From an uncultured Candidatus Rokubacteria bacterium (lineage in GTDB: Bacteria; Methylomirabilota; Methylomirabilia; Rokubacteriales; CSP1-6): a stretch of DNA of 64,000 bases. A program made the position numbers and the translations under genes. How positions within the stretch are numbered: the stretch's first letter is position 1; every line of letters begins with the position of its first letter. Under the pieces are notes generated by a model. That model worked only from the letters and a program-made list of their open reading frames with translations. It made no database searches and was not told the origin of the DNA. Positions 28,694 through 54,294 of the stretch are shown one piece after another. Location: NCBI GenBank assembly GCA_963771355.1, contig CAVYTA010000006.1, positions 1,184,001 to 1,248,000 of the forward strand, read 5' to 3'.

Positions 28694-28721
28694 AAACTAA
28701 CACAGCGCGTTATACTGTCAA
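28694..28721 (-). promoter_or_regulatory. sigma70 promoter with overlapping palindromic operator
   Basis: TTGACA-16-TAGTTT on the minus strand; TAACAC-AGC-GCGTTA at 28698-28712. Confidence 0.7.
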
Positions 28722-28790
28722 GCAGAATTTAACGCAGAGAGTCATTTACGCTATAGTGCTGATAATGCGCCATATAATTGAGGTCACGCC

Positions 28791-30060
28791 GTGAGCTCCC
28801 CCGCCCCACGCCAGCGTCGGATTGCTCTCATCGTCCTCCTGGCGGCGGTCTTCCTGGCCATCACGTCCTTCCCCTTCCGCGCCTCCTGGTGGGGTGGCTG
28901 GATCCTCGCGATCGCCGAGGCGGGCATCGTGGGCGGGCTCGCCGACTGGTTCGCCGTCACCGCGATCTTCCGCCGCCCGCTCGGACTCCCCATTCCCCAC
29001 ACCGCGCTGATCCCGGCCAACTGGGAGCTGATGGCGGAACGCGTCGGCACCATGGTCGGCGACCGCGTGCTCACCAAGGACTACGTCGCGCGCGAGGTGG
29101 CGCGCTTCGACATCGCCGATCTCCTCGCGCGTGCCGCCGACCGCGTGAAGCCCGAGGATCTCGAGGCCGTGCTGCGCGCGGCCGCGCGCTGGGCGGCGGA
29201 TCAGCTCACGCCCGAAGCCACCGCGGACATCGTGGCCTGGCTGCGCGGACTCCTCCTCGGCCGTCCCCTGGCTCCCCTCCTGGCGCGGGCCATCGAGATC
29301 GCGCAGCGCCAGGGCTGGGACCAGCGCGCGATCGAGGCGCTCGCCGGCGCCCTCGGCGACGCGCTGGATCGCCCCGACTTCCGCGCTGCGGTGGGCGAGT
29401 TGGTGGACGAAGTGCTCGCCGGCTATCGCGAGAAGATGGGCACCTACCCGCGGCTCCTGATCGGGCTGGCCAACGTCTTCGGTCTGATCAACCGGGACCG
29501 GCTCGTCGGCGTCCTCCACGGCGCCATCCGGAAGGTGGCCGCCGACCCCGCCGACCCGATGCGGCGGCGCCTCGTCGAGGTGATCGGTGCCCTCCCAGAG
29601 CGCCTGCGCCGCGATGCCGACCTGGCCGCGCGCGTGGAGACCGCGAAGACGGAGCTGCTCGCGAGCGCGGAGGTGACCCGGCTCATCGAGGACGCGACCG
29701 AGGGCCTCCGGCGCGCGCTCGTCTCGGACCTCGCGAGCGAGCGGTCCGAGACGGTGGCCTGGATCACCGCCCGTCTCGACGGGCTCCGCCGGCAGCTGTC
29801 CACGGACCCGGCCCTCCGCGCAGGCTCTCGACCGGTGGATCAAGACGCGCATCATCGGCCTGATCGAGCGCTACCACGACCGCATCGCGCGCTTCATCGA
29901 GCGGGGCGTCCACGCGCTGGGGCCCGAGGGCGCGGTGCGCCTCATCGAGGAGCACGCGGGGGACGATCTCCAGTACATCCGCGTCAACGGCACCGTGGTC
30001 GGCGGGCTCGCCGGCGGCGCCCTCTACGCGATCCACCTGCTGCTGCGCCTGCTGCTGTAA
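28791..30060 (+). CDS. DUF445 family membrane protein, +1 frameshift near 29820
   Basis: EAGIVGGLADWFAVTAIFRRPLGLPIPHTA at the N-terminus. The C-terminal DLQYIRVNGTVVGG is in another frame, restored by removing one G at ~29820. Confidence 0.88.
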
Positions 30061-30063
30061 GGG

Positions 30064-30121
30064 GGCTGCCACACCTTTCGCCACTCCTTCGGCCACCCAC
30101 CCGCTCGAGGACGGCGCCGAG
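30064..30121 (+). pseudogene. intI: Integron-integrase (tyrosine recombinase) remnant
   Basis: Translates GCHTFRHSF[+1]ATHPLEDGAE, versus IntI box II CHTFRHSFATHLLEDG. Confidence 0.7.
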
Positions 30122-30296
30122 ACTCCTGTGACCCGCCATGCCGACCCCGCCCCCGCAGTCTCCGCCGCGCTACACAGGTCTGCGTATCCCCTCCCGCGCC
30201 CACCCCACCCCATGGCGAACTATGCGCCACCTAGGCTATTCTTGCGACGCAAGGAGGCCACCGGCCATGCTACGCAGCCTTCCCGCGCTACCACCT

Positions 30297-30331
30297 CCGC
30301 GCTACACAGAACTAGATAATTCTAGTTATGC
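30297..30331 (+). other. attI-like recombination site
   Basis: AACTAG-ATAATT-CTAGTT palindrome ending in core GTTATGC (30325-30331), the exact complement of the first attC R'' (GCATAAC). Confidence 0.7.
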
Positions 30332-30365
30332 GGACAGAGGAGGGCGCGAGCCCGAGAGGAGCCAT

Positions 30366-30743
30366 ATGCCTGACGCGCGTAAGCCGGGCGACGTTCATCC
30401 GTTGTTCGTGGCTGCCTTCAACGCAGGCGATCTCGACGCTCTCATGCAGTGCTTTGAGCCTGAGGCCTGCTTCGTATCCAAGTCGGGCCGTATCGCGGCC
30501 GGAGCCGACGCAGTCCGTGAGGCATATCGGCGAACACTCGCGAACAAGCCTCACATGGAGTTGGAGGTACGAAAGGTCTTGCCCGCGGGCCCCGGTCTGG
30601 CGTTGGTCATCGTCCCGTTCACGCAGAAGGCCGTCACGGGGGACGGACCGACGGAATGGCGCAGTGTAGCGACCGACATCGTTCGGCAGCAGCCCGATGG
30701 CAGTTGGCGGCTGGTTTTGGACAATCCGTTCGGTATCGAATGA
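30366..30743 (+). CDS. SnoaL/DUF4440 NTF2-like protein (cassette 1)
   Basis: FVAAFNAGDLDAL...ATDIVRQQPDGSWRLVLDNP; GAGGAG RBS. Confidence 0.88.
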   Translation: MPDARKPGDVHPLFVAAFNAGDLDALMQCFEPEACFVSKSGRIAAGADAVREAYRRTLANKPHMELEVRKVLPAGPGLALVIVPFTQKAVTGDGPTEWRSVATDIVRQQPDGSWRLVLDNPFGIE

Positions 30744-30749
30744 ACGACC

Positions 30750-30837
30750 GCATAACACACGGCTGGAACGGACCGCCGTCAAGCGCCGTTTTGACCTCCG
30801 AGCGTGGTGCCGGCGGCCGCTCAGGCGAGCGTTCGGC
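30750..30837 (+). other. attC site 1
   Basis: GCATAAC-5-GCTGGAAC...GCTCAGG...GTTCGGC with internal palindrome. Confidence 0.85.
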
Positions 30838-30906
30838 GTTTGACAGGTAGCGCTTGCGAGTCGACAGAGCCGTGAGACCCGACTGGCCGCTTCAACGGAG
30901 AACTGC

Positions 30907-31899
30907 ATGCTGAAGACACGTCTCACGGACCTGCTGGGCCTTCGCTATCCTGTCATTTCGGCACCGATGGCGCGCATGAGCGGCGGCCGTCTGGCGGCGG
31001 CGGTCTCCGCGGCCGGCGGCCTCGGGACCTTCGGCGGCGTGGCTCTCGCAACCCCCACCGGACCGGAATACGTCCGTGAGCAGATCGCCACGATTCGGGC
31101 CCAGACGGATCGTCCGTTCGGCGTCGGTTTCATCACGCATTGGTTGTCGCGCGCACCCGAGAATTTCGAGGTCGTCCTGGAGGAGCGAGTACCGGTCGTA
31201 CTCTTCTCTTTCGCCGATCCCCGGCCGTGGATCGGTCGCGCGAGGGATGCGGGGGCCATTACCATCTGTCAGGTTCAGACGATCGACGGCGCCCGAACCG
31301 CCGTCTCGGCAGGCGCTCACGTCCTCGTCGCGCAGGGCAACGAATCCGGCGGCCACACTGGCGCCCTGCACCTGTTGCCGTTCCTCGTCCGCGTCATCGA
31401 GATGTTTCCCGAGTTACCGGTGGTCGCCGCCGGCGGGATCGCAAACGGCCGCTCGCTGGCCGCGGTCCTCGCCGCCGGCGCCGAAGGTGCCTGGGTTGGA
31501 ACGGCTTTCGTAGCAACGCCGGAGAACGAACTCCCCGAGGCCTACAAGGCACGCGTCGTCCAGCATCGGGGAGATGAGTCCGTCTACACCGAAGTGATGG
31601 ATATCGTCCTCACACGGATGCGCGGGTCGCCGGCCTGGCCGACTGGCATCGCCGCGCGCGTCCACAATAACGCTTTCATTCGCACATGGCACGGCCGCGA
31701 AGACGAGTTACGTGCCCAGCTCGACGAGGTCATCCCGATGTACGCCGAGGCCGCGAAGCGCGGAGACCAGGATGTCGTCCCCGTGTTGTTCGGGCGATCC
31801 GCCGATTTCGTCCACGCCGTGCGGCCTGCGGCCGACGTCCTCACCGAGATGTGCGCCGCCGCCGAGCGCCACCTACGCGGGCGCTGGAACGCCGATTGA
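30907..31899 (+). CDS. Nitronate monooxygenase / FabK-like flavoprotein (cassette 2)
   Basis: PVISAPM, QGNESGGH, AAGGIANG, VGTAF. Confidence 0.9.
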   Translation: MLKTRLTDLLGLRYPVISAPMARMSGGRLAAAVSAAGGLGTFGGVALATPTGPEYVREQIATIRAQTDRPFGVGFITHWLSRAPENFEVVLEERVPVVLFSFADPRPWIGRARDAGAITICQVQTIDGARTAVSAGAHVLVAQGNESGGHTGALHLLPFLVRVIEMFPELPVVAAGGIANGRSLAAVLAAGAEGAWVGTAFVATPENELPEAYKARVVQHRGDESVYTEVMDIVLTRMRGSPAWPTGIAARVHNNAFIRTWHGREDELRAQLDEVIPMYAEAAKRGDQDVVPVLFGRSADFVHAVRPAADVLTEMCAAAERHLRGRWNAD

Positions 31900-31914
31900 A
31901 GGTGGCCGAGTATC

Positions 31915-31984
31915 GCCGAACAACGCGCAGCACCCGACCGGGGCTCGCGTTGCTCGCTCCGGCGGGTGAGCGCCGGCGTTACAG
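31915..31984 (+). other. attC site 2
   Basis: GCCGAAC-5-GCAGCACC...GGTGAGC-6-GTTACAG. Confidence 0.82.
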
Positions 31985-32026
31985 ACCGGTGATGGGGGCT
32001 TCGATGATGACGCGTGAGGAACAGCT

Positions 32027-32464
32027 ATGAGACGGCTGCTCAGAGCGATCACGGTCGTCACGGCCATCTTCCTTCTCGTCGTGCCGGCCGCCACTCACGC
32101 GCAGCAACCAGCAATGCCGGTGATCGGTTTCCTCGGCACCTCGACGGCCGCGGCTTGGGCAGGTTACGTGGCCGGGTTCCGTCAGGGGCTCAGCGAGGCT
32201 GGCTATGTCGACGGCCGCAACGTCACGATCGAATTCCGCTGGGCGGAGGACCGATCCGATCGATTGTCGCCGCTCGCGGCTGATTTGGTCGGCCGTCAGG
32301 TGACCGTGATCGTCACAAGCGCTGGAACGGCTCTGGCACTCGCGGCGAAGGCCGCGACTCCGACTATCCCCGTCGTTTTCGTGATGGGGGCCGACCCCGT
32401 CAAGTTCGGTCTCGTCGCCAGTCTCGGTCGTCCGGGAGGGAACCTCACGGGGGTGTCAAGCTGA
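32027..32464 (+). pseudogene. Truncated ABC substrate-binding protein (ABC_sub_bind family)
   Basis: [12 protein letters not shown]...[16 protein letters not shown]...[21 protein letters not shown] then stops; only the N-terminal half is present. Confidence 0.8.
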
Positions 32465-32519
32465 GGCGGAGGCGGAGGGCATCGTTGCTCGTCTACCCCA
32501 TCGGCGGCACTCTTACGTA

Positions 32520-33068
<549 letters not shown>

Positions 33069-33100
33069 CTATCGGGCCTCAGACGGCTCCGAGCGCCGCC

Positions 33101-33135
33101 GCCTAACCCGCCGCTGAACCGCAGTATCGTTAGCC
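33101..33135 (+). other. attC site 3, internally deleted (35 bp)
   Basis: GCCTAAC-CCGCCGCTGAACCGCAGTATC-GTTAGCC; both R boxes retained, central stem missing. Confidence 0.7.
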
Positions 33136-33623
33136 GCTATGATGTGTGACCGATCGGTGCGAGCATGCGCGGGCGCGCCCTGGAAGGCGCGCATGTGTCA
33201 GAACGAGGGAGGTTCCAGGGCTGGCGATGACGGTTAAGACACTGCGCCCCCAATCGCGAGTGGCGCGATCACGGACAGTGAGCGTGAAGTTCGGTCGGCG
33301 CCACGAGGCCGGACGCGCGCTTCGTCATACTGTCGACTCACGCTGCGCGGAGCTAATCGTGCAGGGTGTGCCACGATCGGACACGGCGAGTGCTAAGTGA
33401 CAACGCATCACGCTGGGGCCCGGTAGCGGCCATCGCCGCGATCAGCATGAACAGCAATTGAAGGAGCTCGCGACCCTCGGCATCAAGCGGGTCGGGCTCA
33501 TGATCTGCGAGACGCTTTTGCTTGGCACTGCTGGTCCTCGCGCTCCTGCGCTGGGGCGGCTGAAGGCGCAAGGCACCGCCCCAGATCGCTGCCTGTGAGT
33601 GCGCTCTCTTCAAAGGATAAGGC

Positions 33624-35324
33624 ATGAACGGCTGGAAGCGTTGGCTGCCCGGGCTGCAGATGGCCAGCCGGTACGAGGCCGCCTGGCTGCCGCACGATCT
33701 TATGGCCGGCCTGGTACTGACCACGATGCTGGTGCCGGTTGGAATTGCCTACGCAGTGGCCTCGGGCGTCCCGGGGATCTACGGCCTGTACGCCACCATC
33801 GTCCCGCTGCTCGCCTACGCCCTGTTCGGCCCGAGCCGGATCCTGGTGCTGGGGCCGGATTCCGCGCTCGCCGCGGTGATTCTCGCGGTCGTGCTGCCTC
33901 TCTCTGCCGGCGACCCGATGCGCGCCGTGGCCCTGGCGAGCATGATGGCGGTGGTGTCGGGACTGGTGTGCATTCTGATCGGCGTAATGCGCCTGGGATT
34001 CGTCACCGAGCTGCTGTCCAAACCGATCCGCTACGGCTACATGAACGGCATCGCGCTCGCCGTGCTGATCAGCCAGCTGCCGAAGCTGTTCGGCTTTTCG
34101 ATCGACAGCGTCGGGCCGCTGCGCGACCTCCTGCGGATCGCGCGGTCGATCCTGGGCGGCCAGGCCAACTGGACGGCGTTCGCGGTCGGCGCCGGCACGC
34201 TGGTGGCGATCCTGCTGCTCAAGCCCTGGAAGCGAATCCCCGGCCTACTGATCGCGGTCGTGGGCGCCACGGTCGCGGTAGGCGCGCTCGGCCTGGACGA
34301 GAGCGCCGGGGTGAAGGTGCTCGGTCCGCTGCCGCAAGGCCTGCCGTCGTTCGCGCTGCCGTGGATAGATCTCGCCGACCTCGTCCAGGTGGTGATCGGC
34401 GGCTGCGCCGTCGCCCTGGTGGCGTTTGCCGACACGAGCGTCCTGTCGCGCACGTATGCGGCCAAGACCCGCTCCCAGGTCGATCCGAACCAGGAGATGA
34501 TCGGCCTGGGCGCCGCGAACCTGGCGGCCGGGCTGTTCCAGGGCTTCCCGATCAGCAGCAGCTCCTCGCGCACGCCGGTCGCCGAAGCCGCGGGCGCGAA
34601 GACCCAGCTCACCGGCGTGGTCGGCGCCGCGGCCGTTGCCCTGCTGCTGTTAGTCGCACCCAATCTGCTGGAAGACCTGCCCAGCAGCGCGCTGGCAGCC
34701 GTCGTGATTGCGGCGGCCATCGGCCTGTTCGAATTCGACGACCTGCGCCGCATTTTCCGCATCCAGCGCTGGGAGTTCTGGCTGTCCGTCGTTTGCTTCG
34801 TTGGCGTCGCAGCATTCGGAGCGATTCCCGGCATCTGCTTGGCGATCGTCATCGCCGTCATGGAGTTTCTCTGGGACGGCTGGCGGCCACATTACGCCGT
34901 GCTGGGCCGAGTCGACGGCATCCGGGGCTTCCACGACATCAAGCGCTATCCCGAGGCGCGGCTCGTTCCGGGCCTGGTCCTGTTCCGCTGGGATGCGCCG
35001 CTCTTCTTCGCCAATGCCGAGCTGTTTCACCAGCGCGTGCTCGAGGCCGTGGCGCAATCGCCGACGCCGATGCGCCGGATCATCGTGACCGCCGAGCCGG
35101 TCACCAGCATCGACGTGACCTCGGCGGACATGCTCGCCGAGCTGGAGCATGCCCTGCGCGAATCGGGCATCGAGATGCGCTTCGCGGAAATGAAGGACCC
35201 GGTCAAGGACAAGCTGAAGCGCTTCGAACTGTTCGAGCGCTTCGGTACCGCGAGCTTTCATCCTACCGTGGGCGCCGCCGTCGACGCCTACCTAGAAGAG
35301 CACTCGGTGGATTGGAAACCCTGA
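33624..35324 (+). CDS. SulP/SLC26 anion transporter with STAS domain
   Basis: DLMAGL, GLYA, FGPSR, NQEMIGLG, SSSRT, PLFFANA. Confidence 0.95.
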   Translation: MNGWKRWLPGLQMASRYEAAWLPHDLMAGLVLTTMLVPVGIAYAVASGVPGIYGLYATIVPLLAYALFGPSRILVLGPDSALAAVILAVVLPLSAGDPMRAVALASMMAVVSGLVCILIGVMRLGFVTELLSKPIRYGYMNGIALAVLISQLPKLFGFSIDSVGPLRDLLRIARSILGGQANWTAFAVGAGTLVAILLLKPWKRIPGLLIAVVGATVAVGALGLDESAGVKVLGPLPQGLPSFALPWIDLADLVQVVIGGCAVALVAFADTSVLSRTYAAKTRSQVDPNQEMIGLGAANLAAGLFQGFPISSSSSRTPVAEAAGAKTQLTGVVGAAAVALLLLVAPNLLEDLPSSALAAVVIAAAIGLFEFDDLRRIFRIQRWEFWLSVVCFVGVAAFGAIPGICLAIVIAVMEFLWDGWRPHYAVLGRVDGIRGFHDIKRYPEARLVPGLVLFRWDAPLFFANAELFHQRVLEAVAQSPTPMRRIIVTAEPVTSIDVTSADMLAELEHALRESGIEMRFAEMKDPVKDKLKRFELFERFGTASFHPTVGAAVDAYLEEHSVDWKP

Positions 35325-35329
35325 AAAGC

Positions 35330-35364
35330 AAAAAAGACCGGACCTCTTGCGAGACCGGGTTCTT
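35330..35364 (-). terminator. Degenerate intrinsic terminator (possibly bidirectional)
   Basis: Minus strand ACCCGGTCTC-GCAA-GAGGTCCGGT followed by a T-tract. Confidence 0.6.
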
Positions 35365-35380
35365 CGTCTCGAGTATAGGG

Positions 35381-35433
35381 TGGCGAAAACCTACTTTTGC
35401 AACGAAGGCACACTTTCATCGTCGCAACTCCGT
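35381..35433 (-). pseudogene. rrf: Degenerate 3' half of a 5S rRNA gene
   Basis: Minus strand ACGGAGTTGCGACGATGAAAGTGTG...GCAAAAGTAGGTTTTCGCCA, versus 5S 3' consensus GCGCCGATGATAGTG...GCGAAAGTAGGTCATCGCCA. Confidence 0.7.
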
Positions 35434-35549
35434 CTGCCCCGGATCGGGCGTGCTGGTACGACGGGCCGTCAAGGCGGGTGCTCGAGCCACCGGAAGCGAC
35501 GGAGCCCGTAATCGCGACGGTCGATCATGCTGATATCCGTGGGAGCGTC

Positions 35550-35638
35550 GTCTAACAACCGATTGGTGCGGCCGGCGTCCAGGTTACGGTGACAACCTCT
35601 AGACGTGGTAGCGCCGCCGCTCAACCGGAGCGTTCGGC
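35550..35638 (+). other. attC site 4
   Basis: GTCTAAC-5-ATTGGTGC...GCTCAAC-6-GTTCGGC. Confidence 0.83.
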
Positions 35639-35672
35639 GACTTCGCGAAACTCAACGGTCGGAGGACAGCCT

Positions 35673-36698
35673 ATGCTTGGTCGCACCCCTCATCCTTGTG
35701 CCTGGCTCCTCGCCTCGCGATGCGCGCTTGTCCTTTCCGTGATTCTGGGCATGCTCGCTGCGTCCCTCCCGGCGGCGGCGCAGGCGCCCCAGAAGGTCTA
35801 TCGCGTCGGTCACCTTGCGGCACCGGGTCGAACACCCGACGGTGCCCCGCCGCGCGTACTCCGTGAAGCGTTGCGAGAGCTCGGCTACGTCGAGGGCCAG
35901 AACATCGCATACGAGGCCCGTTTTGCTGAGGGCAAGCTGGAGCGGCTGCCAGATTTGGCGGCCGAGCTCGTCCGGCTCAAGGTCGACGTCATCGTGGCGC
36001 AAGGGGGGGCGTCGACGGAGGCGGCAAGGCGAGCGACATCGACGATTCCGATCATCATGGCGCCGGCCTCGGGGGATGCCGTGGCGGTCGGATGGATCGC
36101 AACCCTTGCGCGCCCAGGCGCGAACGTCACCGGATTGAGCGATGAGTCCATCCAACTGAGTGCCAAGCGGATGGAGCTTCTCAAGGAGGCGCTGCCGAAA
36201 GCAGCCCTGATCGCGATCATCTGGAACGCCAACGATCGTGGTATGACGCTGCGCTACCGCGAGATCGAGAAAGCGGCGCTCACCCTCCGTGTGGAGGTGC
36301 AAGGGCTGGGCGTGCGCGATCCCGAGGACTTCGCGGCGGCATTCGCCACGATGACACAGCGCAGGCCAGACGCGATGTTCCTGGTTGCGGACGCTCTCAC
36401 GAACATCAATCGTAAACGGTTTGTCGAGTTCGCGGCGACCCACCGCATTCCGGCAATGTATGAGTCCAGCGTCATCGTCCGCGAGGGGGGGCTGATGTCG
36501 TACGGGTCCAGCTTCGAGGACGAGTTCCGTGAGGCCGCCCGGTACATCGATCGCATTCTCAAGGGCGCGAAGCCGGCGAATCTGCCCGCCGTGCAGCCAA
36601 CGAAGTACTACTTCGTGGTCAATCTCAAGACGGCGACCACTTTGGGGCTGACGTTTCCCCAGTCCCTGCGCCTCCGGATCGACGAACTGGTCGAGTAG
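35673..36698 (+). CDS. Orphan ABC substrate-binding protein (ABC_sub_bind family, cassette 5)
   Basis: GGAGG RBS; LGYVEGQNI, LARPGANVTG, GGLMSYG, ILKGAKPANLP, NLKTA. Confidence 0.92.
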   Translation: MLGRTPHPCAWLLASRCALVLSVILGMLAASLPAAAQAPQKVYRVGHLAAPGRTPDGAPPRVLREALRELGYVEGQNIAYEARFAEGKLERLPDLAAELVRLKVDVIVAQGGASTEAARRATSTIPIIMAPASGDAVAVGWIATLARPGANVTGLSDESIQLSAKRMELLKEALPKAALIAIIWNANDRGMTLRYREIEKAALTLRVEVQGLGVRDPEDFAAAFATMTQRRPDAMFLVADALTNINRKRFVEFAATHRIPAMYESSVIVREGGLMSYGSSFEDEFREAARYIDRILKGAKPANLPAVQPTKYYFVVNLKTATTLGLTFPQSLRLRIDELVE

Positions 36699-36705
36699 AT
36701 GGATC

Positions 36706-36762
36706 GCCGAACAAGCCGCTGCAGCGGACCGGCTGCGCCAGCCCTGAGCGCCGACGTTAGCC
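36706..36762 (+). other. attC site 5
   Basis: GCCGAAC-5-GCTGCAGC...CCTGAGC-6-GTTAGCC. Confidence 0.85.
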
Positions 36763-36819
36763 GTCGTGCGGCCGGGCGCGGCCGGCGGATAGGCTACAAT
36801 CGGCTCTAAAGGAGGGCCG

Positions 36820-37347
36820 ATGCGGCTCCTAGCCCTTACCCTGCTCCTGCTCTTCGCGTCCCCGGGCTCCGCGCAGATGTCGCCATTCGAATTCAATGGT
36901 GTCGCGCTGGGAACCGATCTCGCGTCGATCGAGCGCACGTCCCGCTTCTCGTGCACGGAGTCGCGGAGCCCGGTCGCGGACCAGCTCTGCCGCCTCAAGT
37001 CGGGTGAGCGCGAGACCATCGGCGACGCCCCGGTGAAGGGGCTCTTCCTCTACTTCTATTCGGGCAAGCTCGAGATGATCTCCCTCACCCTCGAGCCAAA
37101 GCACTTCCCCGACGTCGTGGGCGCCCTGACGAAACGGTATGGCACGGGAAGCATAGAAACCGAGACCGTGCAGAATCTCACCGGCGGAACGTTCGAGAAC
37201 AAGATCTATTCCTGGCGCCGAAACAAGGCAACGCTCGAAGCGCAGACCTACGGCAGGAACCTCGAAACGTCGTCCCTGATCTATCGCACCGACTTTTCCC
37301 TGGAGGAGTATACGCGGCGGAGCAGCGCGAATCCGGCGGGCCGCTAG
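36820..37347 (+). CDS. Secreted hypothetical protein
   Basis: AAGGAGG RBS, signal peptide, two Cys; no recognised domain. Confidence 0.75.
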   Translation: MRLLALTLLLLFASPGSAQMSPFEFNGVALGTDLASIERTSRFSCTESRSPVADQLCRLKSGERETIGDAPVKGLFLYFYSGKLEMISLTLEPKHFPDVVGALTKRYGTGSIETETVQNLTGGTFENKIYSWRRNKATLEAQTYGRNLETSSLIYRTDFSLEEYTRRSSANPAGR

Positions 37348-40585: not shown

Positions 40586-40648
40586 CTCGCTCACCCGCCC
40601 CGCGGGCCGGTGCTGCCACGGACCTGCCTCAGCGCCATCGCGCCGGAC

Positions 40649-41065: not shown

Positions 41066-41083
41066 GGGGTACCTCCTTTGCGG

Positions 41084-43500: not shown

Positions 43501-43534
43501 GGGCTGTAGCTGGCGCGAGCTAGACGAACGGCAA

Positions 43535-44924: not shown

Positions 44925-44926
44925 CG

Positions 44927-45688: not shown

Positions 45689-45693
45689 CAGTC

Positions 45694-47487
<1,794 letters not shown>

Positions 47488-47497
47488 GGTTGTCTCC

Positions 47498-49009
47498 TCA
47501 CACCTGTGTGCGGAGCTCTTTGCGCAGGACCTTCCCGATCGGGCTCTTGGGAAGGGCCTCCACGAAGCGCACCTGCTTGGGGCACTTGTAGCGGGCCAGC
47601 CGGGTCTGGCAGAAGGCCATGACCTCGTCGGCGGTGGCGTTCTGGCCGTCGCGGAGCACCACGAAGGCGAGGACGTCCTCGCCCATGAGGGGATCCGGCA
47701 TCCCGATCACCGCGGCCTCCGCCGTCTTCGGAAACGCGTAGAGGGTCTCCTCCACCTCGCGGGGGTAGATGTTGAAGCCGCCGCGGATGATGAGATCCTT
47801 CTTCCGCTCGACGATGTAGAGGAAGCCGTCCCCGTCCAGGCGCCCCATGTCGCCGGTGTGGAGCCAGCCGCCCCGCACCGTGCGCGCCGTCTCGTCGGGA
47901 TCGCGGTAGTAGCCGAGCATCACGTTCGGGCCCTTCACGCACACCTCGCCCACCTCGCCCGGGGGCAGCGGCCGGTCGGCGTCGTCCTGGATGGTGACCG
48001 ACACCCCCGGGATGGGCTGGCCCACCGAGCCCAGCTTGCGCACCCCGGACAGCCGATGCGCCGATACCACCGGCGCGGCCTCGGTGAGCCCATAGCCCTC
48101 CATCATCTTGCCGCCGAACTTCCGCTCGAAGGGCTCGACCACCTCCACCGGGAGCGGCGCCGCCCCCGAGCCCCAGACCCGCATCGACGAGGTGTCGAAG
48201 CGGTCCGCCTCGGGATAGTTGAGGAGGTAGAGGAACATGGTGGGAACGCCCGACATCGCGCTGGCCCGGAATTTCTGGATGGTCTCCAGCACCGCCTCCG
48301 GGTTGAACCAGCGCAGCAGCACCGCGCGGGTGCCGAGGATGCTTCCCGCGTTCATGAGGGTGAGCCCGTACGAATGCGACAGCGGCAGCACTGCCACCGC
48401 CCACTCGCGCCGGTCCAGCTCGTAGAGCTCGGCGGCGGCGCGGGCGTTGGCGGCGAGGTTCGCGTGGGACAGCGCCACCCCCTTCGGCCTCCCCGTGGTG
48501 CCGGAGGTGTAGAGGATCACTGCGACCTCGTCGTCCTCGCGGTCGATGGTCTCGAAGCGCTCGTGCTCCCCCGCCGTCTCCGCGGCGAAGGACCGGGTGC
48601 GGCCGTCGGGGTCACCCTCGCCGTCCACCACCAGCACGTGGCGGAGCGTGGGGAGCACTCCGATCTGGTCCTCGACCTTCCACACCATGTCGGGGGACGT
48701 GATCACCACCTTGGCCTCGGAGTGGGCGAGGATATGCGCCACCTCGGCGGATCCCAGAAGGAAGATCACCGGCACGATCACCGCGCCCGCCTTGAGAATG
48801 CCGCCGTAGCTCTGGGTGACCTCGGGGCAGTTCGGGAGCATCACCGCCACCCGGTCGCCCGGCTCCACGCCCAGGCGCCGGAGGGCGTTGGCGAGACGGC
48901 GCGACGCGCGATCGGCTTCGACATTGGTGATCTCGCGCCCCTCGAAGGACAGCGACACGAACTCGCCGTACTTGCCGAGGCTGTCCTCCCCGAGCCGGGC
49001 CAGGTTCAT
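47498..49009 (-). CDS. Long-chain fatty acid-CoA ligase
   Basis: YTSGTTGRPKG, EGYGLTE, GWLHTGD, LPKSPIGK. Confidence 0.93.
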   Translation of the reverse strand: MNLARLGEDSLGKYGEFVSLSFEGREITNVEADRASRRLANALRRLGVEPGDRVAVMLPNCPEVTQSYGGILKAGAVIVPVIFLLGSAEVAHILAHSEAKVVITSPDMVWKVEDQIGVLPTLRHVLVVDGEGDPDGRTRSFAAETAGEHERFETIDREDDEVAVILYTSGTTGRPKGVALSHANLAANARAAAELYELDRREWAVAVLPLSHSYGLTLMNAGSILGTRAVLLRWFNPEAVLETIQKFRASAMSGVPTMFLYLLNYPEADRFDTSSMRVWGSGAAPLPVEVVEPFERKFGGKMMEGYGLTEAAPVVSAHRLSGVRKLGSVGQPIPGVSVTIQDDADRPLPPGEVGEVCVKGPNVMLGYYRDPDETARTVRGGWLHTGDMGRLDGDGFLYIVERKKDLIIRGGFNIYPREVEETLYAFPKTAEAAVIGMPDPLMGEDVLAFVVLRDGQNATADEVMAFCQTRLARYKCPKQVRFVEALPKSPIGKVLRKELRTQV

Positions 49010-49021
49010 GGCGGCAGTATC

Positions 49022-49348
49022 TTAGCGGGGCGTCACGCGGAACGCCTCGATGGAATTCGAGCTGGCGCGGTAGACCCCTTCCACCTCCACCGGCGCCCCC
49101 GGCCGCGCCGGGAAGGCTCCCGGCGCCACCACGTCCACGCTCATCCCGCCCGACATGAGGGTGAAGCGCTGGCTGGCTCCGCTCGGCACGCCCGCGATGC
49201 CCACCGTGCCGGTGACGATCACCTGCTGCTGGTCGAACCGGCCGCGCTCGGTGAACAGCACCGAGAGGGGAACCGGCTGGGCCAGGGCGGGAGATCCCGT
49301 CACCACCATCGCGAACGCCAGCAGCAACCCCGTCAGCAATCTTTTCAT
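49022..49348 (-). CDS. Secreted small OB-fold-like hypothetical protein
   Basis: Signal peptide; beta-rich VIVTGTV...VEVEGVY. Confidence 0.7.
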   Translation of the reverse strand: MKRLLTGLLLAFAMVVTGSPALAQPVPLSVLFTERGRFDQQQVIVTGTVGIAGVPSGASQRFTLMSGGMSVDVVAPGAFPARPGAPVEVEGVYRASSNSIEAFRVTPR

Positions 49349-50037
49349 GAGCAGTCCTCCTTGATCGCCTCGAGCCGCGCGATGGGGCTCGGGTGCGTCG
49401 AAAGCCAGTTGAAGTATTCGGGCCGCCGGCTCTCCCGCGCCAGGCGCCGGAGCAGCGCGGCGAGCGCGCGACAGCGGGTGCCGTCGCCCGGCAGCCGGTT
49501 CAGCAGCTCCACCGCGTAGCGGTCCGCTGCGCGCTCCTCGTCGCGGTCATAGGCGCGGAACTTGGCCAGCTCGGCGGGCTGGCGCGAGAGCATGGGCCCC
49601 GCGCCGCGCTCCTCCTGCCGGCGGGCCCGGCGCGCCACCGCGTGCTCCAGCTCCACATGTCCCAGCTCGTGCGCGAGCGCGGCGCGCAGCTCCTCAGGGG
49701 GAAGCTGCGCCAGCGCGCCTTCGGTCACGAGGAGGCTGAAGCGGCATGACGGGTGCGGCGCCACGCCGAGGTTGATGTGCTTCATCGGCAGGATCCCGAG
49801 GCCCACCGCGCAGCCGTCTTCCGGGCCCCGCCATACCCCGGAGGCGCGCAGGAGCGGGGCCAGGGCCGCCGAGATACGGAACCGGTCGTCCTCCGTCGGC
49901 GCCCGGGGTTGTACTGCCGGGCGGACGGGCGGCTTCTGCTTCTGCTGAGGGGCCTGGGAGGCACAGCCGGCCAGGAACGCCAGGGCGAGGAGAGCAATGG
50001 CTCCCAAAGGCCGACACCTTGACGCAATATAGCGCAT
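49345..50037 (-). CDS. M48 family metallopeptidase lipoprotein (start uncertain)
   Basis: LAGC lipobox, LAHELGH, EERAAD, STHP. Confidence 0.85.
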   Translation of the reverse strand: MRYIASRCRPLGAIALLALAFLAGCASQAPQQKQKPPVRPAVQPRAPTEDDRFRISAALAPLLRASGVWRGPEDGCAVGLGILPMKHINLGVAPHPSCRFSLLVTEGALAQLPPEELRAALAHELGHVELEHAVARRARRQEERGAGPMLSRQPAELAKFRAYDRDEERAADRYAVELLNRLPGDGTRCRALAALLRRLARESRRPEYFNWLSTHPSPIARLEAIKEDCS

Positions 50038-50048
50038 TGCGTTATCAT
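50019..50048 (+). promoter_or_regulatory. sigma70 promoter with overlapping palindromic operator
   Basis: TTGACG-18-TATCAT; TAGCGC-ATT-GCGTTA at 50030-50044; also ACGCAAT-7-ATTGCGT. Confidence 0.7.
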
Positions 50049-50115
50049 GACTCCATGGTTACGCCGCACTGTGACAACGGCGTCACGAATGCTTCCGAGA
50101 CGGAGGAAACGATCA

Positions 50116-50565
50116 ATGACGATGGCCACCCCAGGAACTGACCTCTTCGCCCAGATGACCGGCACCGCCGTGGAGATGTTCACCCTCTACGCCGACATGA
50201 ACCAGAAGGTTCTCCGCGAGCTGGTCGACCTCTCCGCCAGCGCCGCCAAGGAAGGCGTCCGCCTTTACGCGGAGCTCCAGTCCTCGGCGGTCGAGGCGGT
50301 GAAGGATGGCCAGGCCTATGCCCTCCGACGCCAGACCGACTTGCAGGACCCGCCGACGGACCCGCTCGCCTTCTGCCAGCGCGGCATGCTGGATTCGACG
50401 GAGGGCGCGCAGCGAGCCTTCAAGCTCTTCGAGGACAATGCCCAGGCGGTGACGCGGTCGGCCGAGCGGCTCCAGGTCAGCGCCGATCAGGCCGGCAAGG
50501 AGATCCAGGCCACCTTGGCCCACCTCTCGGATCGGGTGAAGTCGCTCTACGCACCCCTCGCCTAG
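50116..50565 (+). CDS. Phasin-like protein 2
   Basis: GGAGG RBS; helical; adjacent to phaR; paralogue of 28199-28621. Confidence 0.72.
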   Translation: MTMATPGTDLFAQMTGTAVEMFTLYADMNQKVLRELVDLSASAAKEGVRLYAELQSSAVEAVKDGQAYALRRQTDLQDPPTDPLAFCQRGMLDSTEGAQRAFKLFEDNAQAVTRSAERLQVSADQAGKEIQATLAHLSDRVKSLYAPLA

Positions 50566-50609
50566 CACCATCGAGTGGTGGACGCGGGCCGGGCCGTCCC
50601 GGCCCGCGA

Positions 50610-51116
50610 TCACTTCTCGCGTCGCTTCTCCAGCCGCTCCTCCAGCGCGCGCAGCTGCTCGCGGAGCGCCGCCACCTCGTCCCGCAGCGCCTCCGCCTCG
50701 CCCGCTCCCTCAGCCTTGCGCTCGGACGCCCCCGCCGGCGGCGCGGCCTTCGGGGCCGTCGCCCAGCCCGCGCGCGACGCCCATTCGCGGAACACGCGGT
50801 CGGCCTCGCGCTGGCTGGTCATGATGGCGTCGAGACTCGACTTCATCGTGCCCTGCACGAAGTCCTGCCAGGCCTGGCCGTGCTTGATGAGCTGGTGGAG
50901 GAAGGCGGTGGGGAGCGCGGCGCGGTGGTTGCGCTCGTTCTCGAGAATGATCTGGGCCAGCGTCACCGAGGTGAGATCCTCGCCGGTGGACACGTCCACC
51001 ACCGAGATCTCCTTGCCGGCGCGGATCAGCTCCTCGAGCTCCTCCAGCGTGACGTAACGGCTCTCCTGCGTGTCGTAAAGCTTACGGTTGGAGTACCGTT
51101 TGATCACGTACGCCAT
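50610..51116 (-). CDS. phaR: PHA synthesis regulator with PHB_acc_N DNA-binding domain
   Basis: IKRYSNRKLYDTQESRYVTL...TGEDLT..TLAQII. Confidence 0.92.
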   Translation of the reverse strand: MAYVIKRYSNRKLYDTQESRYVTLEELEELIRAGKEISVVDVSTGEDLTSVTLAQIILENERNHRAALPTAFLHQLIKHGQAWQDFVQGTMKSSLDAIMTSQREADRVFREWASRAGWATAPKAAPPAGASERKAEGAGEAEALRDEVAALREQLRALEERLEKRREK

Positions 51117-51122
51117 GGCGGG

Positions 51123-51141
51123 AGTCTAACACCGCGCGTCA
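51123..51141 (-). promoter_or_regulatory. phaR -10 with overlapping palindromic operator
   Basis: TAGACT 6 nt before ATG; TAACAC-CGC-GCGTCA at 51127-51141. Confidence 0.7.
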
Positions 51142-51214
51142 GGGCCCACAAGCCGCCACCCCCTCGCCCTGATATACTGGCGCACCCTTCACGACCTCGT
51201 CAGGAGGACGCGCC

Positions 51215-51958
51215 ATGTTGCTCGAAGGACGCACCGCGCTCGTCACCGGAGGCTCCCGCGGCATCGGACGCGCCATCGCGCTCGCGCTCGCCGAGGAGGG
51301 CGCCGACGTCGCCATCAACTACGTCTCCAGCGAGGCCACCGCCCGCAGCGTGGCGGACCAGGTCCAGAAGCTGGGTCGCCGAGTCATGCTCGCCCAGGCC
51401 GACGTGGCCGATTACCCCGACACCTATCGGATGGCGCAGGACGTGCTGAAGGAGTTCGGGCACGTCGACATCCTCGTCAACAACGCCGGCATCACGTCGG
51501 ACAAGAGCTTCGTGAAGATGGACCACGCCTCCTGGCGCCGGGTGCTGGCCATCAATCTCGACGGGGTCTTCAACTGCACCAAGGTGTTCATCGACCAGAT
51601 GCTCAAGCAGAGCTTCGGCCGGGTGGTGAACATCACCTCGGTCATCGGTCAGATCGGCAACTTCGGGCAGGCCAACTACGCCGCCTCCAAGGCGGGCGTG
51701 GCCGCGTTCACCAAGTCCCTGGCCAAGGAGCTGGCGGGCAAGGGCATCACCGTGAACTGCGTGGCGCCGGGCTTCACCGAGACCGACATGGTCACCGCCA
51801 TTCCGGAGAAGGTGCGCGCCAAGCTGCTGGAGCAGATTCCCATGCGGCGCTTCGGGAAGGCGGAGGAGGTGGCACGCGCCTGCGTCTACCTCTGCTCCAA
51901 GGACGGCGACTACGTGACGGGGGCGGAGCTCTCCATCAACGGGGGGCTGTTCATGTAG
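51215..51958 (+). CDS. phaB: Acetoacetyl-CoA / 3-oxoacyl reductase
   Basis: TGGSRGIG, GNFGQANYAASK, INGGLFM; located in the pha cluster. Confidence 0.85.
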   Translation: MLLEGRTALVTGGSRGIGRAIALALAEEGADVAINYVSSEATARSVADQVQKLGRRVMLAQADVADYPDTYRMAQDVLKEFGHVDILVNNAGITSDKSFVKMDHASWRRVLAINLDGVFNCTKVFIDQMLKQSFGRVVNITSVIGQIGNFGQANYAASKAGVAAFTKSLAKELAGKGITVNCVAPGFTETDMVTAIPEKVRAKLLEQIPMRRFGKAEEVARACVYLCSKDGDYVTGAELSINGGLFM

Positions 51959-52005
51959 GGCGAGCCGAAGAGCACCCTGTGCTCTGAGGCGAGCAATACG
52001 AAAAT
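51959..52005 (+). repeat. Short REP-like element
   Basis: GGCGAGCCGAAG...GAGGCGAGCAATACGAAAAT; homologous to 55479-55519 on the minus strand. Confidence 0.6.
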
Positions 52006-52613
52006 CAAGGGCGTCGCCTCACCGCCGCGGCACCGATAGCAGGATCCCCTTGAAGGCGCCGAGGCGCCGCAAGCGCGAGCGCGCTGAGGCTCAGCATCCC
52101 CATCATGGCCGCGCCCTGGGCCGCCCACGCCCACGGGCTCAGCGCCCAGAGCGTCAACAGCGCGGCGGGATCCGCCACCCGCTCGTAGCGCACGGGGGTG
52201 CGCGACGGCATCACCAGGGCCTCGCCGCCGAGCACTTCCTCGCCGCGCTGATTCACACACACGGTCCGGAGCCGAACTCGATTCTTCTCCAAGATGATCT
52301 CGGTCACCTCCACCCGCGCGGTGACGGTGTCGCCCAGCTTCACCGGCCGGAGGAACTTCAGGTCCTGCGAGAGGTAGATGGTACCGGGGCCCGGCAGGCG
52401 CGTGCCGATCACCGCCGACACCAGGCCGGCCGTCCAGATCCCCGGCGCGATTCGCTCCTTGAAGAGCGTGCCGGCGGCGTAGGCCGGATCGGAGTGGATG
52501 GGGTTGTAGTCCCCCACGGAGTCCACGAAGCCCGCGATGTCTCCGTCGGTGGCCACGCGCGTCACCTCCGCGCGGTCGCCCACCTCGATGCGGTCGATGG
52601 TGACTCCGATCAT
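52005..52613 (-). CDS. phaJ: MaoC-family (R)-specific enoyl-CoA hydratase with C-terminal extension
   Basis: GDYNPIHSD, LPGPGTIYLSQDLKFLRPV; ATGA overlap with phaE. Confidence 0.85.
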   Translation of the reverse strand: MIGVTIDRIEVGDRAEVTRVATDGDIAGFVDSVGDYNPIHSDPAYAAGTLFKERIAPGIWTAGLVSAVIGTRLPGPGTIYLSQDLKFLRPVKLGDTVTARVEVTEIILEKNRVRLRTVCVNQRGEEVLGGEALVMPSRTPVRYERVADPAALLTLWALSPWAWAAQGAAMMGMLSLSALALAAPRRLQGDPAIGAAAVRRRP

Positions 52614-53131
52614 GCCGAGCCCACCGGGCCCCGCCCACCCGCCTCCAGACGGCGGAGCACGGCGTCCACCTTGTCCTCCACACCCTCGAGCTTCTCCTCG
52701 AGCTGGATGAGCTGCTGGGCCACCGCGATGAGCTGGCTGCGCGACGCGAGCCCCAGGCCCGCCAGCGACGCCTCCAGCTGCTGCTCGGCCGCCTTCTTCA
52801 CCGGGCTCGCCGCGTTGAGGAAGCCCTCCATCTGCTTGCCGAGGGTCTTGGCGAAGGCCTCGGTGCCCATGGCCTGCTCGAGCACCTTGGACCAGGCGGC
52901 GATCCACTGGTCGAGGAACTGCTTCCACTGGACCATGAGATCCGGCGAGGCCTGCCCCTGCGTCATCACCTTGGACCAGGCGGCGACGCCCTGGTCCATG
53001 AAGGGGCGCCAGAAAGCCTGAGGGTCCATCGGCGCCGCCTGCGGGGTGCCCAGCATCTTGAGCCAGGCCTGGCTCCCCTCCTCCACCTGCTTCTTCCACA
53101 TGTCGAACAGCTGGTTGCTCGCATCCGCCAT
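52610..53131 (-). CDS. phaE: Short PHA synthase accessory subunit (PhaE-like)
   Basis: Directly downstream of phaC; W-rich helices; GLASRSQL...LIQLEEKL coiled coil. Confidence 0.75.
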   Translation of the reverse strand: MADASNQLFDMWKKQVEEGSQAWLKMLGTPQAAPMDPQAFWRPFMDQGVAAWSKVMTQGQASPDLMVQWKQFLDQWIAAWSKVLEQAMGTEAFAKTLGKQMEGFLNAASPVKKAAEQQLEASLAGLGLASRSQLIAVAQQLIQLEEKLEGVEDKVDAVLRRLEAGGRGPVGSA

Positions 53132-53143
53132 TGGATGTTCCTC

Positions 53144-54247
53144 CTACGACCTGGCCGCCAGCCAGGACGCGACCTTGGGCCAGCAGTGCACCGAGGCGCC
53201 GCGTCCCGCGATGAGGGAGATGTGCCCGCCCGGCAGCTCCACGTACTCGCGGTCGGCGCTGGAGACGGCGGTGATGAGCGGCTTCACGCAGGCGGGCGGC
53301 GCGATATTGTCTTCCTTGGCGCCCACCGCGAGCACGGGGGCGTGGATGTTCCGCAGGCTCACCGGACGGCCTCCCATGCGCAGCTCGCCCCGGACGAGCC
53401 GGTTCTGCTGGTAGAAGTCCTTCACCCACTGGCGGAAGAACTCGCCGGGAAACGGGAGGTACTCGTTGGCCCACTTGTTGAGCGCATTGAATCCCGAGAC
53501 GTACTCGGGATTCCACAAGTTCCACCAGAGATTGATGTTGGTGGAGAGATCCATGGTCGGCTTGAGGAGCTTGAAGCCGGCCTTCACCATGTCGGCGGGA
53601 ATGCTGCCCATGGTGTCCACGTACTTGTCCACGTCGAAGTAACGCGCGTCGAGCCACTGGGCGAAGAGTCCCGCGTGGGCGAAGTCGATGGGCCCCGCCA
53701 TGTCCACGAAGTTCTTCAGCGGGAACTCGGGTGTGGAGCCCAGGAAGCTCGCCGAGATGGGCGCGCCCATGCAGTACCCCAGCACGGAGATCTCGCGCGC
53801 GCCCGAGGACTCCAGCGCCTTGCGCGCCATCCGAGGCAGGATCTTGGTCACGACGTCCTCGAAGGTGAGGCCGTTGTCCTCCGGCCCGAACACGCCCCAG
53901 TCCACCAGGTACATGTCGAACCCCTGCTGCGTCATGTGCTCCATGAACGAGCCCCGGCGCATGAGGTCGAAGATGTAGGGCCGGCTGATGCCGAGGTTGG
54001 GGACGAACAGCACCGGGGTCCGGTGCGTCCGCTTGGACTCGTACCGGTACAGGCGCGACTTGTTCTTCCGGTAGATCTCCTGGCGCGGCGTGGGTCCGAG
54101 CTCGGGCTCCTTGGGATTCATGACCATCTCGGAGAAGTGCTTCATGCGGAGGAAGTTCCGATTGACCTCCTCCTGCCAGCGCGCCCGCACCTCGGGGGAC
54201 ACCCCGGGCATCTCGGGCACCACCATGGTGAACAGTTCGTCCTTCAT
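53144..54247 (-). CDS. phaC: Class III/IV-type PHA synthase
   Basis: 367 aa; GPTP, RPYIFDL, LVDWG, GYCMG catalytic Cys, DNIAPP Asp, GGHIS His. Confidence 0.93.
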   Translation of the reverse strand: MKDELFTMVVPEMPGVSPEVRARWQEEVNRNFLRMKHFSEMVMNPKEPELGPTPRQEIYRKNKSRLYRYESKRTHRTPVLFVPNLGISRPYIFDLMRRGSFMEHMTQQGFDMYLVDWGVFGPEDNGLTFEDVVTKILPRMARKALESSGAREISVLGYCMGAPISASFLGSTPEFPLKNFVDMAGPIDFAHAGLFAQWLDARYFDVDKYVDTMGSIPADMVKAGFKLLKPTMDLSTNINLWWNLWNPEYVSGFNALNKWANEYLPFPGEFFRQWVKDFYQQNRLVRGELRMGGRPVSLRNIHAPVLAVGAKEDNIAPPACVKPLITAVSSADREYVELPGGHISLIAGRGASVHCWPKVASWLAARS

Positions 54248-54264
54248 GTGTGACCTCCTCCCCT

Positions 54265-54294
54265 ATCCTACGCGGGCCTGACGCTTCGCGTCAA
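54265..54294 (-). promoter_or_regulatory. phaC promoter with perfect palindromic operator over -35
   Basis: TTGACG-18-TAGGAT; TGACGC-TTC-GCGTCA at 54279-54293. Confidence 0.72.

Follow-up and report, generated by a model that had tools for sequence, protein, structure and literature searches.

Genes and Proteins of the Storage Locus

The window, a stretch of 64,000 nt from contig CAVYTA010000006.1 of the 5.5-Mb assembly GCA_963771355.1 (an uncultured Candidatus Rokubacteria bacterium, Methylomirabilota), carries the PHA storage genes and promoter features collected in Table 1. The synthase unit is of class III type, since both the lipase-box cysteine (GYCMG in PhaC) and the PhaE subunit are present; PhaE lies above its family cut-off (PF09712, 30.2 vs 25.7), and the best family for PhaC is TIGR01836 with 281 bits, below the cut-off of 365.

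Table 1. Coordinates of the storage genes, palindromic boxes and neighbouring features in the window
Feature	Position	Strand	Remark
WS/DGAT	26687-28147	+	convergent with phasin-like gene 1
Phasin-like gene 1, 140 aa	28199..28621	-	paralogue of gene 2, 39% identity
Proximal box, phasin-like gene 1	28698..28712		over predicted -10 (28694-28699, minus strand)
Distal box, phasin-like gene 1	28730..28744		32 bp from proximal box, beyond -35
Proximal box, phasin-like gene 2	50030..50044		between TTGACG (50019) and TATCAT (50043-50048)
Phasin-like gene 2, 149 aa from likely start	50116..50565	+	ORF opens at 50047
phaR-like regulator	50610..51116	-	PHB_acc_N DNA-binding domain; the genome's sole such gene
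Box, phaR/phaB intergenic region	51127..51141		register of predicted phaR promoter
phaB (acetoacetyl-CoA reductase-like SDR)	51215..51958	+	divergent from phaR; TIGR01829 303.1, cut-off 302.1
phaC-phaE-phaJ, class III-type synthase unit	52005..54247	-	from profile searches and sequence
phaJ-like hydratase	52005-52613	-	
phaE	52610-53131	-	
phaC	53144-54247	-	
Perfect palindromic box	54279..54293		over predicted -35 (TTGACG) of phaC promoter
TetR/FadR gene	56322-56903		NF053878 202.5, cut-off 200
FadR-type box upstream of TetR/FadR gene	56910..56927	-	separate motif

The phaR-like protein matches PHB_acc_N (PF07879) with 95.8 bits against a cut-off of 25 and is encoded by a single gene in the genome. 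Its alignment to TIGR01848 covers residues 4-104 and falls short of the equivalog cut-off (94.1 vs 109.45), and the second domain, PHB_acc (PF05233), gave no match at E <= 0.001; granule binding by this protein is therefore less secure. The region where PF05233 would be expected is helical in the structural model (pLDDT 75) and may represent a diverged form, and the N-terminal domain is folded as beta-beta-beta-alpha-beta-alpha. A Foldseek search with this model returned no match at E <= 0.001, the best Z score being 4.5, which does not imply a new fold, and the profile search for solved PhaR relatives yielded nothing meaningful, its best match being a designed repeat protein.

The two phasin-like proteins of the window match no phasin profile of Pfam or NCBIfam above cut-off, and the label of phasin is tentative for both. 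Phasin_2 is the commonest weak match of the family, found at E <= 0.1 in 19 of 78 members, and the best phasin score among 60 further homologues is 21.6 bits against a cut-off of 24.9. The model of phasin-like protein 2 is a two-helix hairpin (H6-77/H83-148, pLDDT 87.5); its comparison with the solved PhaP 5IP0 (Z 8.7, rmsd 4.9, 105 aligned residues) ranks 24th among generic helical hits, and a PDB profile search gave no match. The Atlas neighbours are unnamed, and among named clusters the nearest (PhaE, PhaP_Bmeg, PHB_acc and Phasin_2; 0.84-0.88) serve as leads only.

A Rare Palindrome at the Storage Promoters

The initial annotation had pointed to a 15-base palindrome, TRACRC-N3-GYGTYA, at four storage promoters. 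A pattern search confirmed these sites, three of them perfect (28698, 51127 and 54279) and one with a single mismatch (50030), and added a further single-mismatch copy at 28730. Five matches in the window stand against 0.91 expected, and this number was reached in none of 100 shuffles. The shared register was also borne out: at 28698, 50030 and 51127, the final TA of the box forms the first two bases of the predicted -10 element, and the phaC site covers the -35 element. The predicted -35 (TTGACA) of phasin-like gene 1 lies at 28716-28721, and the predicted phaR promoter comprises a -35 at 51146-51151 and an extended -10 at 51123-51128 (minus strand). Among the additional partial sites that had been proposed, only that at 28730 holds, with a matrix score of 14.7; in 7/7 orthologous loci, an equivalent box (scores 13.2-17.8) lies 32-33 bp away from the proximal one. 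The 28730 site shares bases with the predicted -35 of a divergent DUF445 promoter (28729-28757, plus strand). The sites at 28746 (-15.8) and 28763 (3.7) are unconserved, score at background level and were rejected.

The whole genome contains four perfect copies, three of which lie in the window. Of the 2342 genes that have an upstream gap of at least 60 bp, 20 carry a perfect or single-mismatch copy, and a matrix score of at least 14 occurs at only 3 of 182 genes with a TTGAC..TANNNT promoter. When the matrix was trained without this genome, its top four hits were phaC, a formate dehydrogenase gene (fdh), phasin-like gene 1 and phaR, in that order, and 11 of the 13 best hits are intergenic in a genome of which 13% is intergenic. 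As for the other hits, C6:834872 (0/1 orthologue) and C6:1560708 (0/3 orthologues having upstream DNA) are not kept; C6:1723718 is kept in 2/5 orthologues, C5:152466 is weakly kept (11.9) in a single close orthologue, and no orthologue of C6:1268633 was found in the five genomes searched. Across 61 genomes, 156 perfect copies were counted, compared with 20 for the reversed pattern.

Conservation in Related Genomes

In 73 related loci, which share kinship and are not independent, a perfect or single-mismatch copy is found before 67/67 phasin-like genes, 59/71 phaR genes and 46/57 synthase units, so that a good site is missing at 12 phaR genes and 11 synthase units. The box is perfect at phasin-like gene 1 (proximal) in 8/8 loci (L073-L080) and at phaR in 28/30 loci. 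Two boxes surround the phasin -35 with a spacing of 31-33 bp in 64/67 loci, with at most two mismatches in 58/67; this layout is present at phasin-like gene 1 of the window and absent at gene 2, which is without the distal box common in relatives. By contrast with the storage genes, the five neighbour genes carry the box in 1 of 218 cases (TetR 1/34, ECH 0/40, SDR 0/43, SCP2 0/44 and phaJ 0/57). Plasmid homologues were less than 60% identical and contributed reference proteins only.

At the synthase unit, the box stands before phaC (27) or phaE (19) and never before both. The inclusion of phaC-phaE-phaJ in the regulon, as originally proposed, is thus supported by a box at the unit, but the phaC-side position is a feature of one clade; other clades have the box before phaE, and a promoter with this box lies between phaC and phaE in a sister clade. 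The distant phasin-like gene, also assigned to the regulon beforehand, is indeed boxed, but the adjacent WS/DGAT gene is convergent and not under this promoter. In other orders of Methylomirabilota, sites scoring at least 14 occur in 14 of 20 phaR loci (16 genomes) despite altered gene order, and the remaining 6 loci are without a site. No genome combining an intact pha locus with a true loss of phaR was found; three candidates with phaC and no phaR hit (G020, G025 and G037) were rejected because their contigs break off inside phaB or phaJ, and at the end of a different contig G025 carries a phasin promoter with two boxes.

Separation of the Box from Promoter Elements

At every site, one half of the palindrome coincides with a -35 or -10 element; in phaR sites, the T at +3 belongs to the TG of an extended -10. 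The motif could hence be a mere overlap, in a GC-rich genome, of sigma-70 elements (TTGAC, extended -10 TGnTA), a caveat of the initial annotation that failed three tests and is now extremely improbable. The spacer half, which no hexamer requires, is near-invariant (GCGTCA positions at 93-100% in 27 phaC sites), and the distal phasin boxes lie outside both hexamers of the phasin promoter. Moreover, two natural rearrangements, each to be counted as a single event, separate the box from the -35 and -10 elements: ten loci that have lost phaB retain the -35 and extended -10 of phaR and have lost the palindrome, while, by visual reading, the register has shifted at about 17 of 60 phaR promoters, where the box lies on the -35 with both halves retained. 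The rarity of the motif at similar promoters argues in the same direction.

In the symmetrised matrix, the GC-N3-GC core columns are conserved at 87-98%, and the box carries 17 bits of information. The R/Y at ±3 is mostly due to the extended -10 TG at the phaR and phasin-1 promoters, and C at +3 occurs in 94-100% of sites at the other promoter classes. Positions ±4 are C/G at 94%, not T/A as in the TGC..GCA triplets of Rhodobacter, Ralstonia and Herbaspirillum; A at +4 is found in 40% of sites of the distal class only.

Candidate Binding Proteins

A FadR-type TetR protein encoded near the synthase unit might bind the palindrome and link the storage genes to acyl-CoA levels. It exceeds the NF053878 cut-off (Table 1), and in most Rokubacteriales loci its gene shares synteny with the pha genes. 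Its own promoter, however, bears the palindrome in 1 of 34 loci and instead has a conserved TGAAY..TTCA box that is like the Bacillus FadR consensus WTGAATGAMTANTCATTCAN; the storage-gene motif departs from the Bacillus-type operator form (TGAATGA..TCATTCA). Because of its separate box, TetR was assigned to that other motif, and no tetR match was found in the 20 motif-survey loci of other orders (stretches of 5-10 kb rather than whole genomes). Binding of the palindrome by TetR is thus very improbable.

The palindrome, summarized as T-R-A-C-G-C-N3-G-C-G-T-Y-A, is very probably, judging from sequence, the operator of the neighbouring PhaR at the storage promoters: it is defined in position, rare, conserved across the phylum, independent of the hexamers and similar to published boxes. 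We infer PhaR binding, repression and release by PHA from the family members of Ralstonia, Herbaspirillum, Bradyrhizobium and Sinorhizobium. In the proposed mechanism, a single PhaR protein would occupy the palindrome over the -35 or -10 element and block RNA polymerase, and growing PHA granules would draw PhaR off the DNA to lift the block. The two boxes around the phasin-like -35, with their spacing of 31-33 bp, could form the tightest switch, the single box at phaR may serve autoregulation, and the single box at the synthase unit may provide positive feedback on polymer synthesis.

The fourth perfect copy, outside the window, precedes a selenocysteine formate dehydrogenase gene, whose product is Tat-exported; all 7 orthologues examined in the genus retain it. 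Measured from its centre to the first base of the -35, the box stands about 29 bp upstream, an activator-type position. An RNA hairpin at this site was rejected (folding of one site gave -2.8 kcal/mol; A/C mismatch in 4/7). The copy suggests that an unlinked regulator, for example of redox or formate metabolism, could bind the motif or share it with PhaR. Of 31 loci, 6 have a partial core, ACGC-N3-GCG, adjoining the -35 of the fdh promoter, and two of the six belong to genomes in which both phaR and phaC went undetected (G016, 95% complete; G026, 92%). The eight genomes without phaR and phaC still have eight perfect copies (1.0 each). Nevertheless, most of these eight copies lie inside coding sequence, 146 copies (2.9 each) occur in the 50 genomes with phaR, and the autoregulatory placement and the published core favour PhaR, so that an unlinked regulator is considered unlikely. 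With PhaR as the binding protein, it is conceivable, as a tentative proposal, that PhaR of this genus reads the PHA store for respiration as well as for granule genes, tying formate oxidation to stored carbon, and that PhaR of the sister clade gates the synthase by rationing PhaE.

Comparison with Known PhaR Systems

At the level of titles and the beginnings of abstracts, no account of this operator was found. The description of the box as a new operator is not supported, although the site is conserved and most likely that of PhaR; its core, the T/A at ±7 and its promoter layout are those of published PhaR boxes. According to the reports on Bradyrhizobium diazoefficiens (PMC6201568, PMC10888616), PhaR recognizes the GC-N3-GC core TGCRNYGCASMA, two footprinted sites flank the phaP1 -35 at a distance of 6 bp on each side, one site lies over the -35 of phaP4, and the active synthase gene phaC1 is outside PhaR control. 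The core and the two sites around the phasin -35 are common to B. diazoefficiens and Rokubacteria, whereas its T/A at ±4 is replaced by C/G in Rokubacteria, with mostly A/T at ±5, giving a longer box with few sites per genome.

For Sinorhizobium meliloti, PMC12542648 describes a PhaR/AniA core YGCRNYGCR with AT-rich arms at about 50 promoters, two copies of which flank the -35 of phaP1 and phaP2, with no phbC site and weak binding at phaR. This core is matched exactly by 121 of 133 Rokubacterial phasin-gene sites (58/66 proximal, 63/67 distal) and by none of the phaR and synthase sites (0/51, 0/27 and 0/18). Unlike in S. meliloti, as described there, phaR and the synthase unit of Rokubacteria have strong sites. 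The DNA-binding domain residues of the two PhaR proteins are conserved, with 37% overall identity.

Ralstonia eutropha PhaR (PMC12849132), with the palindrome YTKNTGCRNYGCANMAR, and Herbaspirillum seropedicae PhbF (PMC3206438), with the consensus TG-N-TGC-N3-GCAA, repress phasin genes and their own genes; R. eutropha PhaR also activates phaP3, and PhbF also shifts phbC promoter fragments. These systems and Rokubacteria have in common a palindrome in which positions 1-4 and 7 are conserved. Rokubacteria differ from them in the base at ±4, the class III-type PhaC/PhaE, the phylum and the targets, which form an unclassified helical family. Under the Ralstonia 17-mer rule (at most three mismatches), 26 of 67 distal sites qualify, as do only 11 of 162 sites in the proximal, phaR and synthase classes taken together.

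The Rokubacterial box is thus most likely, on sequence grounds, a longer lineage version of the Proteobacterial PhaR switch, and the known PhaR circuit is not overturned. It provides a testable short carbon-storage regulon for an abundant soil phylum known almost only from genomes, and the paired boxes single out a family of helical proteins, so far unclassified, as likely phasins. The longer box with C/G at ±4 forms, together with the published box, a natural pair for locating the DNA-reading residues of PhaR, and both the core and the phasin promoter with two sites around the -35 are common to Proteobacteria and Methylomirabilota.

Genes of the locus

The product of 50610-51116 carries a PHB_acc_N domain and is the sole such product in the genome by profile search, in which it did not reach the TIGR01848 cut-off. 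For its N-domain, a small alpha/beta fold is predicted, for which structure and profile comparisons gave no clear match among solved structures; PhaR papers name a helix-turn-helix instead. Named relatives belong mostly to Ca. Rokubacteria/Methylomirabilota. The two helical genes are paralogues of each other; neither protein reached the phasin profile cut-offs, the commonest weak profile match of the family is Phasin_2 (19 of 78 members), and the fit of the predicted hairpin to solved PhaP is no better than for many coiled coils, and both are called phasin-like here on context. Gene 1 is syntenic with WS/DGAT and DUF445 in six genomes of the genus, and its product may serve as a coat for wax-ester or fat bodies. 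Past about residue 345 the DUF445 frame is odd, possibly through a frameshift or assembly error.

Coordinates of the features (window positions unless a contig or locus is given; G000, source genome; C, its contigs; L, related loci; G078-G089, related genomes)
Feature	Position	Remark
Boxes of phasin-like gene 1	28730; 28698	distal; proximal
Box of phasin-like gene 2	50030	proximal
Box of phaR	51127
Box of phaC	54279
Fourth perfect box	G000:C6:1161508-1161522 (L001)	~22.5 kb before the window
Weaker candidate sites	G000:C5:152466; C6:1723718	precede 132-aa unknown gene and MalK-type ABC ATPase; partly conserved in relatives
PhaC-like	53144-54247	profile search
PhaE-like	52610-53131	profile search
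PhaJ-like	52005-52613	profile search
Acetoacetyl-CoA reductase-like SDR	51215-51958	profile search
WS/DGAT, phasin-like gene 1, DUF445	26687-30131
DUF445 promoter overlapped by distal box	28729-28757
Region of ligase and phasin-like gene 2	47498-50030	distal box absent
Bacillus FadR-type operator	56910-56927	ahead of TetR-hydratase-SDR-SCP2 genes; kept in listed orthologues
GGTC-N-GACC palindrome	L001:3963-3973; L123-L152, L106, L114	fdh promoters
phaE-type loci	L170-L219	19 loci
Family f8	G078-G089; L262-L265, L277-L281	two PF07879 genes in 10/12 genomes
Loci without phaB and phaR box	L155, L157-L159, L161, L163, L165, L166, L168, L225	promoter hexamers kept

Conservation and specificity of the box

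All four 15-mers (TRACRC-N3-GYGTYA) proposed in the initial annotation were recovered by sequence search of the window, which holds five matches at up to one mismatch against 0.91 expected, a number reached in 0 of 100 shuffles. Because the pattern was derived from the same sites, this figure alone is circular, and conservation and specificity were therefore assessed on DNA other than the sites defining it. Of three further partial sites claimed, 28730 is the fifth match, with one mismatch, whereas 28746 and 28763 have background matrix scores (-15.8 and 3.7) and lack conservation. The source genome (5.5 Mb, 70% GC) contains four perfect copies, three of them in the window, and 50 one-mismatch copies; 20 of 2342 comparable upstream regions carry the box at up to one mismatch. 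With a scoring matrix derived from the named loci, the source genome left out, phaC, a formate dehydrogenase gene (fdh), phasin-like gene 1 and phaR rank first to fourth and phasin-like gene 2 sixth.

Among 73 named loci, counting only genes with enough upstream DNA, the box at up to one mismatch is retained ahead of phasin-like genes (67/67), phaR (59/71), phaC (27/57) and phaE (19/59), as against 1/218 control genes (TetR 1/34, ECH 0/40, SDR 0/43, SCP2 0/44, phaJ 0/57). The intergenic regions ahead of phaB (56/57) and acyl-CoA ligase (40/53) are the same as those of phaR and the phasin-like gene, respectively. In the best 30 genomes out of 50 that are phaR-positive, the phaR box is perfect in 28, source genome included; the named and handle-bearing genome sets overlap within one collection, and kin among them are not independent. 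A hand tally of 61 genomes gave 156 perfect copies, versus 20 for the reversed pattern. Of 170 genomes from the phylum, 136 have PF07879, and of 20 phaR loci from 16 genomes of other orders, 14 have sites scoring at least 14, often paired 31-33 bp apart ahead of small helical genes, in differing gene orders. The six siteless loci comprise four of family f8 away from pha genes, three of which belong to genomes where phaR is present twice, and two of family f7 without other pha genes. In f8, the PF07879 copy remote from the pha genes is mostly without a strong box.

Promoter architecture

Phasin-like promoters have the order distal box, TTGAC and proximal box extending into the -10, with the boxes 31-33 bp apart in 64 of 67 loci. 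Both boxes are present at window gene 1, and only the proximal one at gene 2. A promoter on the other strand, that of DUF445 here and of an acyl-CoA ligase in most relatives, is overlapped by the distal box, so the divergent genes may be co-regulated. In the source genome, phasin-like gene 2 and the ligase are separated by two genes, an M48 peptidase and one of 108 aa.

The initial annotation noted that the half-sites resemble TTGAC and extended -10 elements; three results separate operator from promoter. Ten loci without phaB retain the phaR -35 and extended -10 and have lost the palindrome; the nine of these in a quick tree (57 loci plus two outgroups) form one clade, which indicates a single loss, and two other phaB-less loci retain the site. 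Reading 60 phaR promoters by eye gave about 17 in which the box is shifted to begin on TTGACG with both halves retained (14 of these are in the tree, where they make up a single clade). Finally, of 182 similar promoters in the source genome, only 3 carry the motif. The palindrome is a real operator. In the phaB-less clade, autoregulation would be lost, or go via the phaC promoter.

At the synthase unit, the box sits over the -35. In line with the proposal that the regulon includes phaCEJ, it precedes phaC here; across 57 loci it precedes phaC in 27, phaE instead in 19, neither in 11 and both in none, the two placements being mutually exclusive. In the phaE-type loci, the boxed promoter lies in the phaC-phaE gap. 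In the tree, 23 phaC-type loci form one clade (SH-aLRT 100), and the sister clade holds every phaE-type locus plus four phaC-type rows.

A perfect box ahead of formate dehydrogenase

The fourth perfect copy begins at the stop codon that ends a 100-aa gene and lies 19-21 bp ahead of the TTGAC of fdh. The fdh gene, for a Tat-type, selenocysteine-type formate dehydrogenase-N alpha, has an in-frame TGA at a position where homologues have Cys codons. The box is perfect in 7/7 loci of the genus, which come from six genomes and differ in the spacer (six triplets), and a stop-anchored site scoring at least 12 occurs at only 1 of the 5088 called genes of the source genome. Against PhaR acting at fdh, a one-mismatch copy occurs there outside the genus in only two near-identical loci, and two genomes without phaR also have a partial core next to the -35 of fdh. 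From these sequences, fdh can be placed only tentatively, and with some doubt, under PhaR control. A second palindrome between the fdh -35 and -10 (22 of 31 loci) may be akin to operators of the GntR/FadR family.

Candidate binder and proposed mechanism

The locus TetR, a Bacillus-type FadR, could alternatively bind the box; however, its own promoter carries another conserved palindrome, similar to the published FadR consensus (PMC5397183). Since the box also keeps the core of published PhaR boxes, these sequence features make PhaR the likely binder. On the model of the PhaR family, as outlined in a review (PMC9049629), PhaR over the -35 or -10 would silence the coat genes, phaR and the synthase unit when PHA is absent, nascent granules would titrate PhaR, and phasin coating would send it back to DNA.

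Comparison with known PhaR systems

By title or start of abstract, the literature searched contained no account of this operator from Methylomirabilota; supplements or regulon databases could contain one. In S. meliloti the synthase promoter has no box, unlike here, and in B. diazoefficiens phaC1 is not under PhaR regulation (PMC10888616). In H. seropedicae, PhbF is described as shifting phbC fragments (PMC3206438), which provides precedent for a synthase-promoter box. The published boxes are CTGCNNNGCAG in Rhodobacter (as cited in PMC12542648), YGCRNYGCR in Sinorhizobium, in two copies around the phaP -35 (PMC12542648), YTKNTGCRNYGCANMAR in Ralstonia (PMC12849132), TGCRNYGCASMA in Bradyrhizobium, footprinted on both sides of the -35 at a distance of 6 bp (PMC6201568), and TG-N-TGC-N3-GCAA in Herbaspirillum (PMC3206438). 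The suggested new lineage PhaR box thus stands as a conserved operator, most likely that of PhaR, but is new only in part: GC-N3-GC and T/A at +/-7 are common to it and the published boxes, from which it differs at +/-4 and +/-5. The Sinorhizobium core matches 121 of 133 phasin-gene sites exactly, as against 0/51 for phaR, 0/27 for phaC and 0/18 for phaE (3, 24 and 16 within one mismatch).
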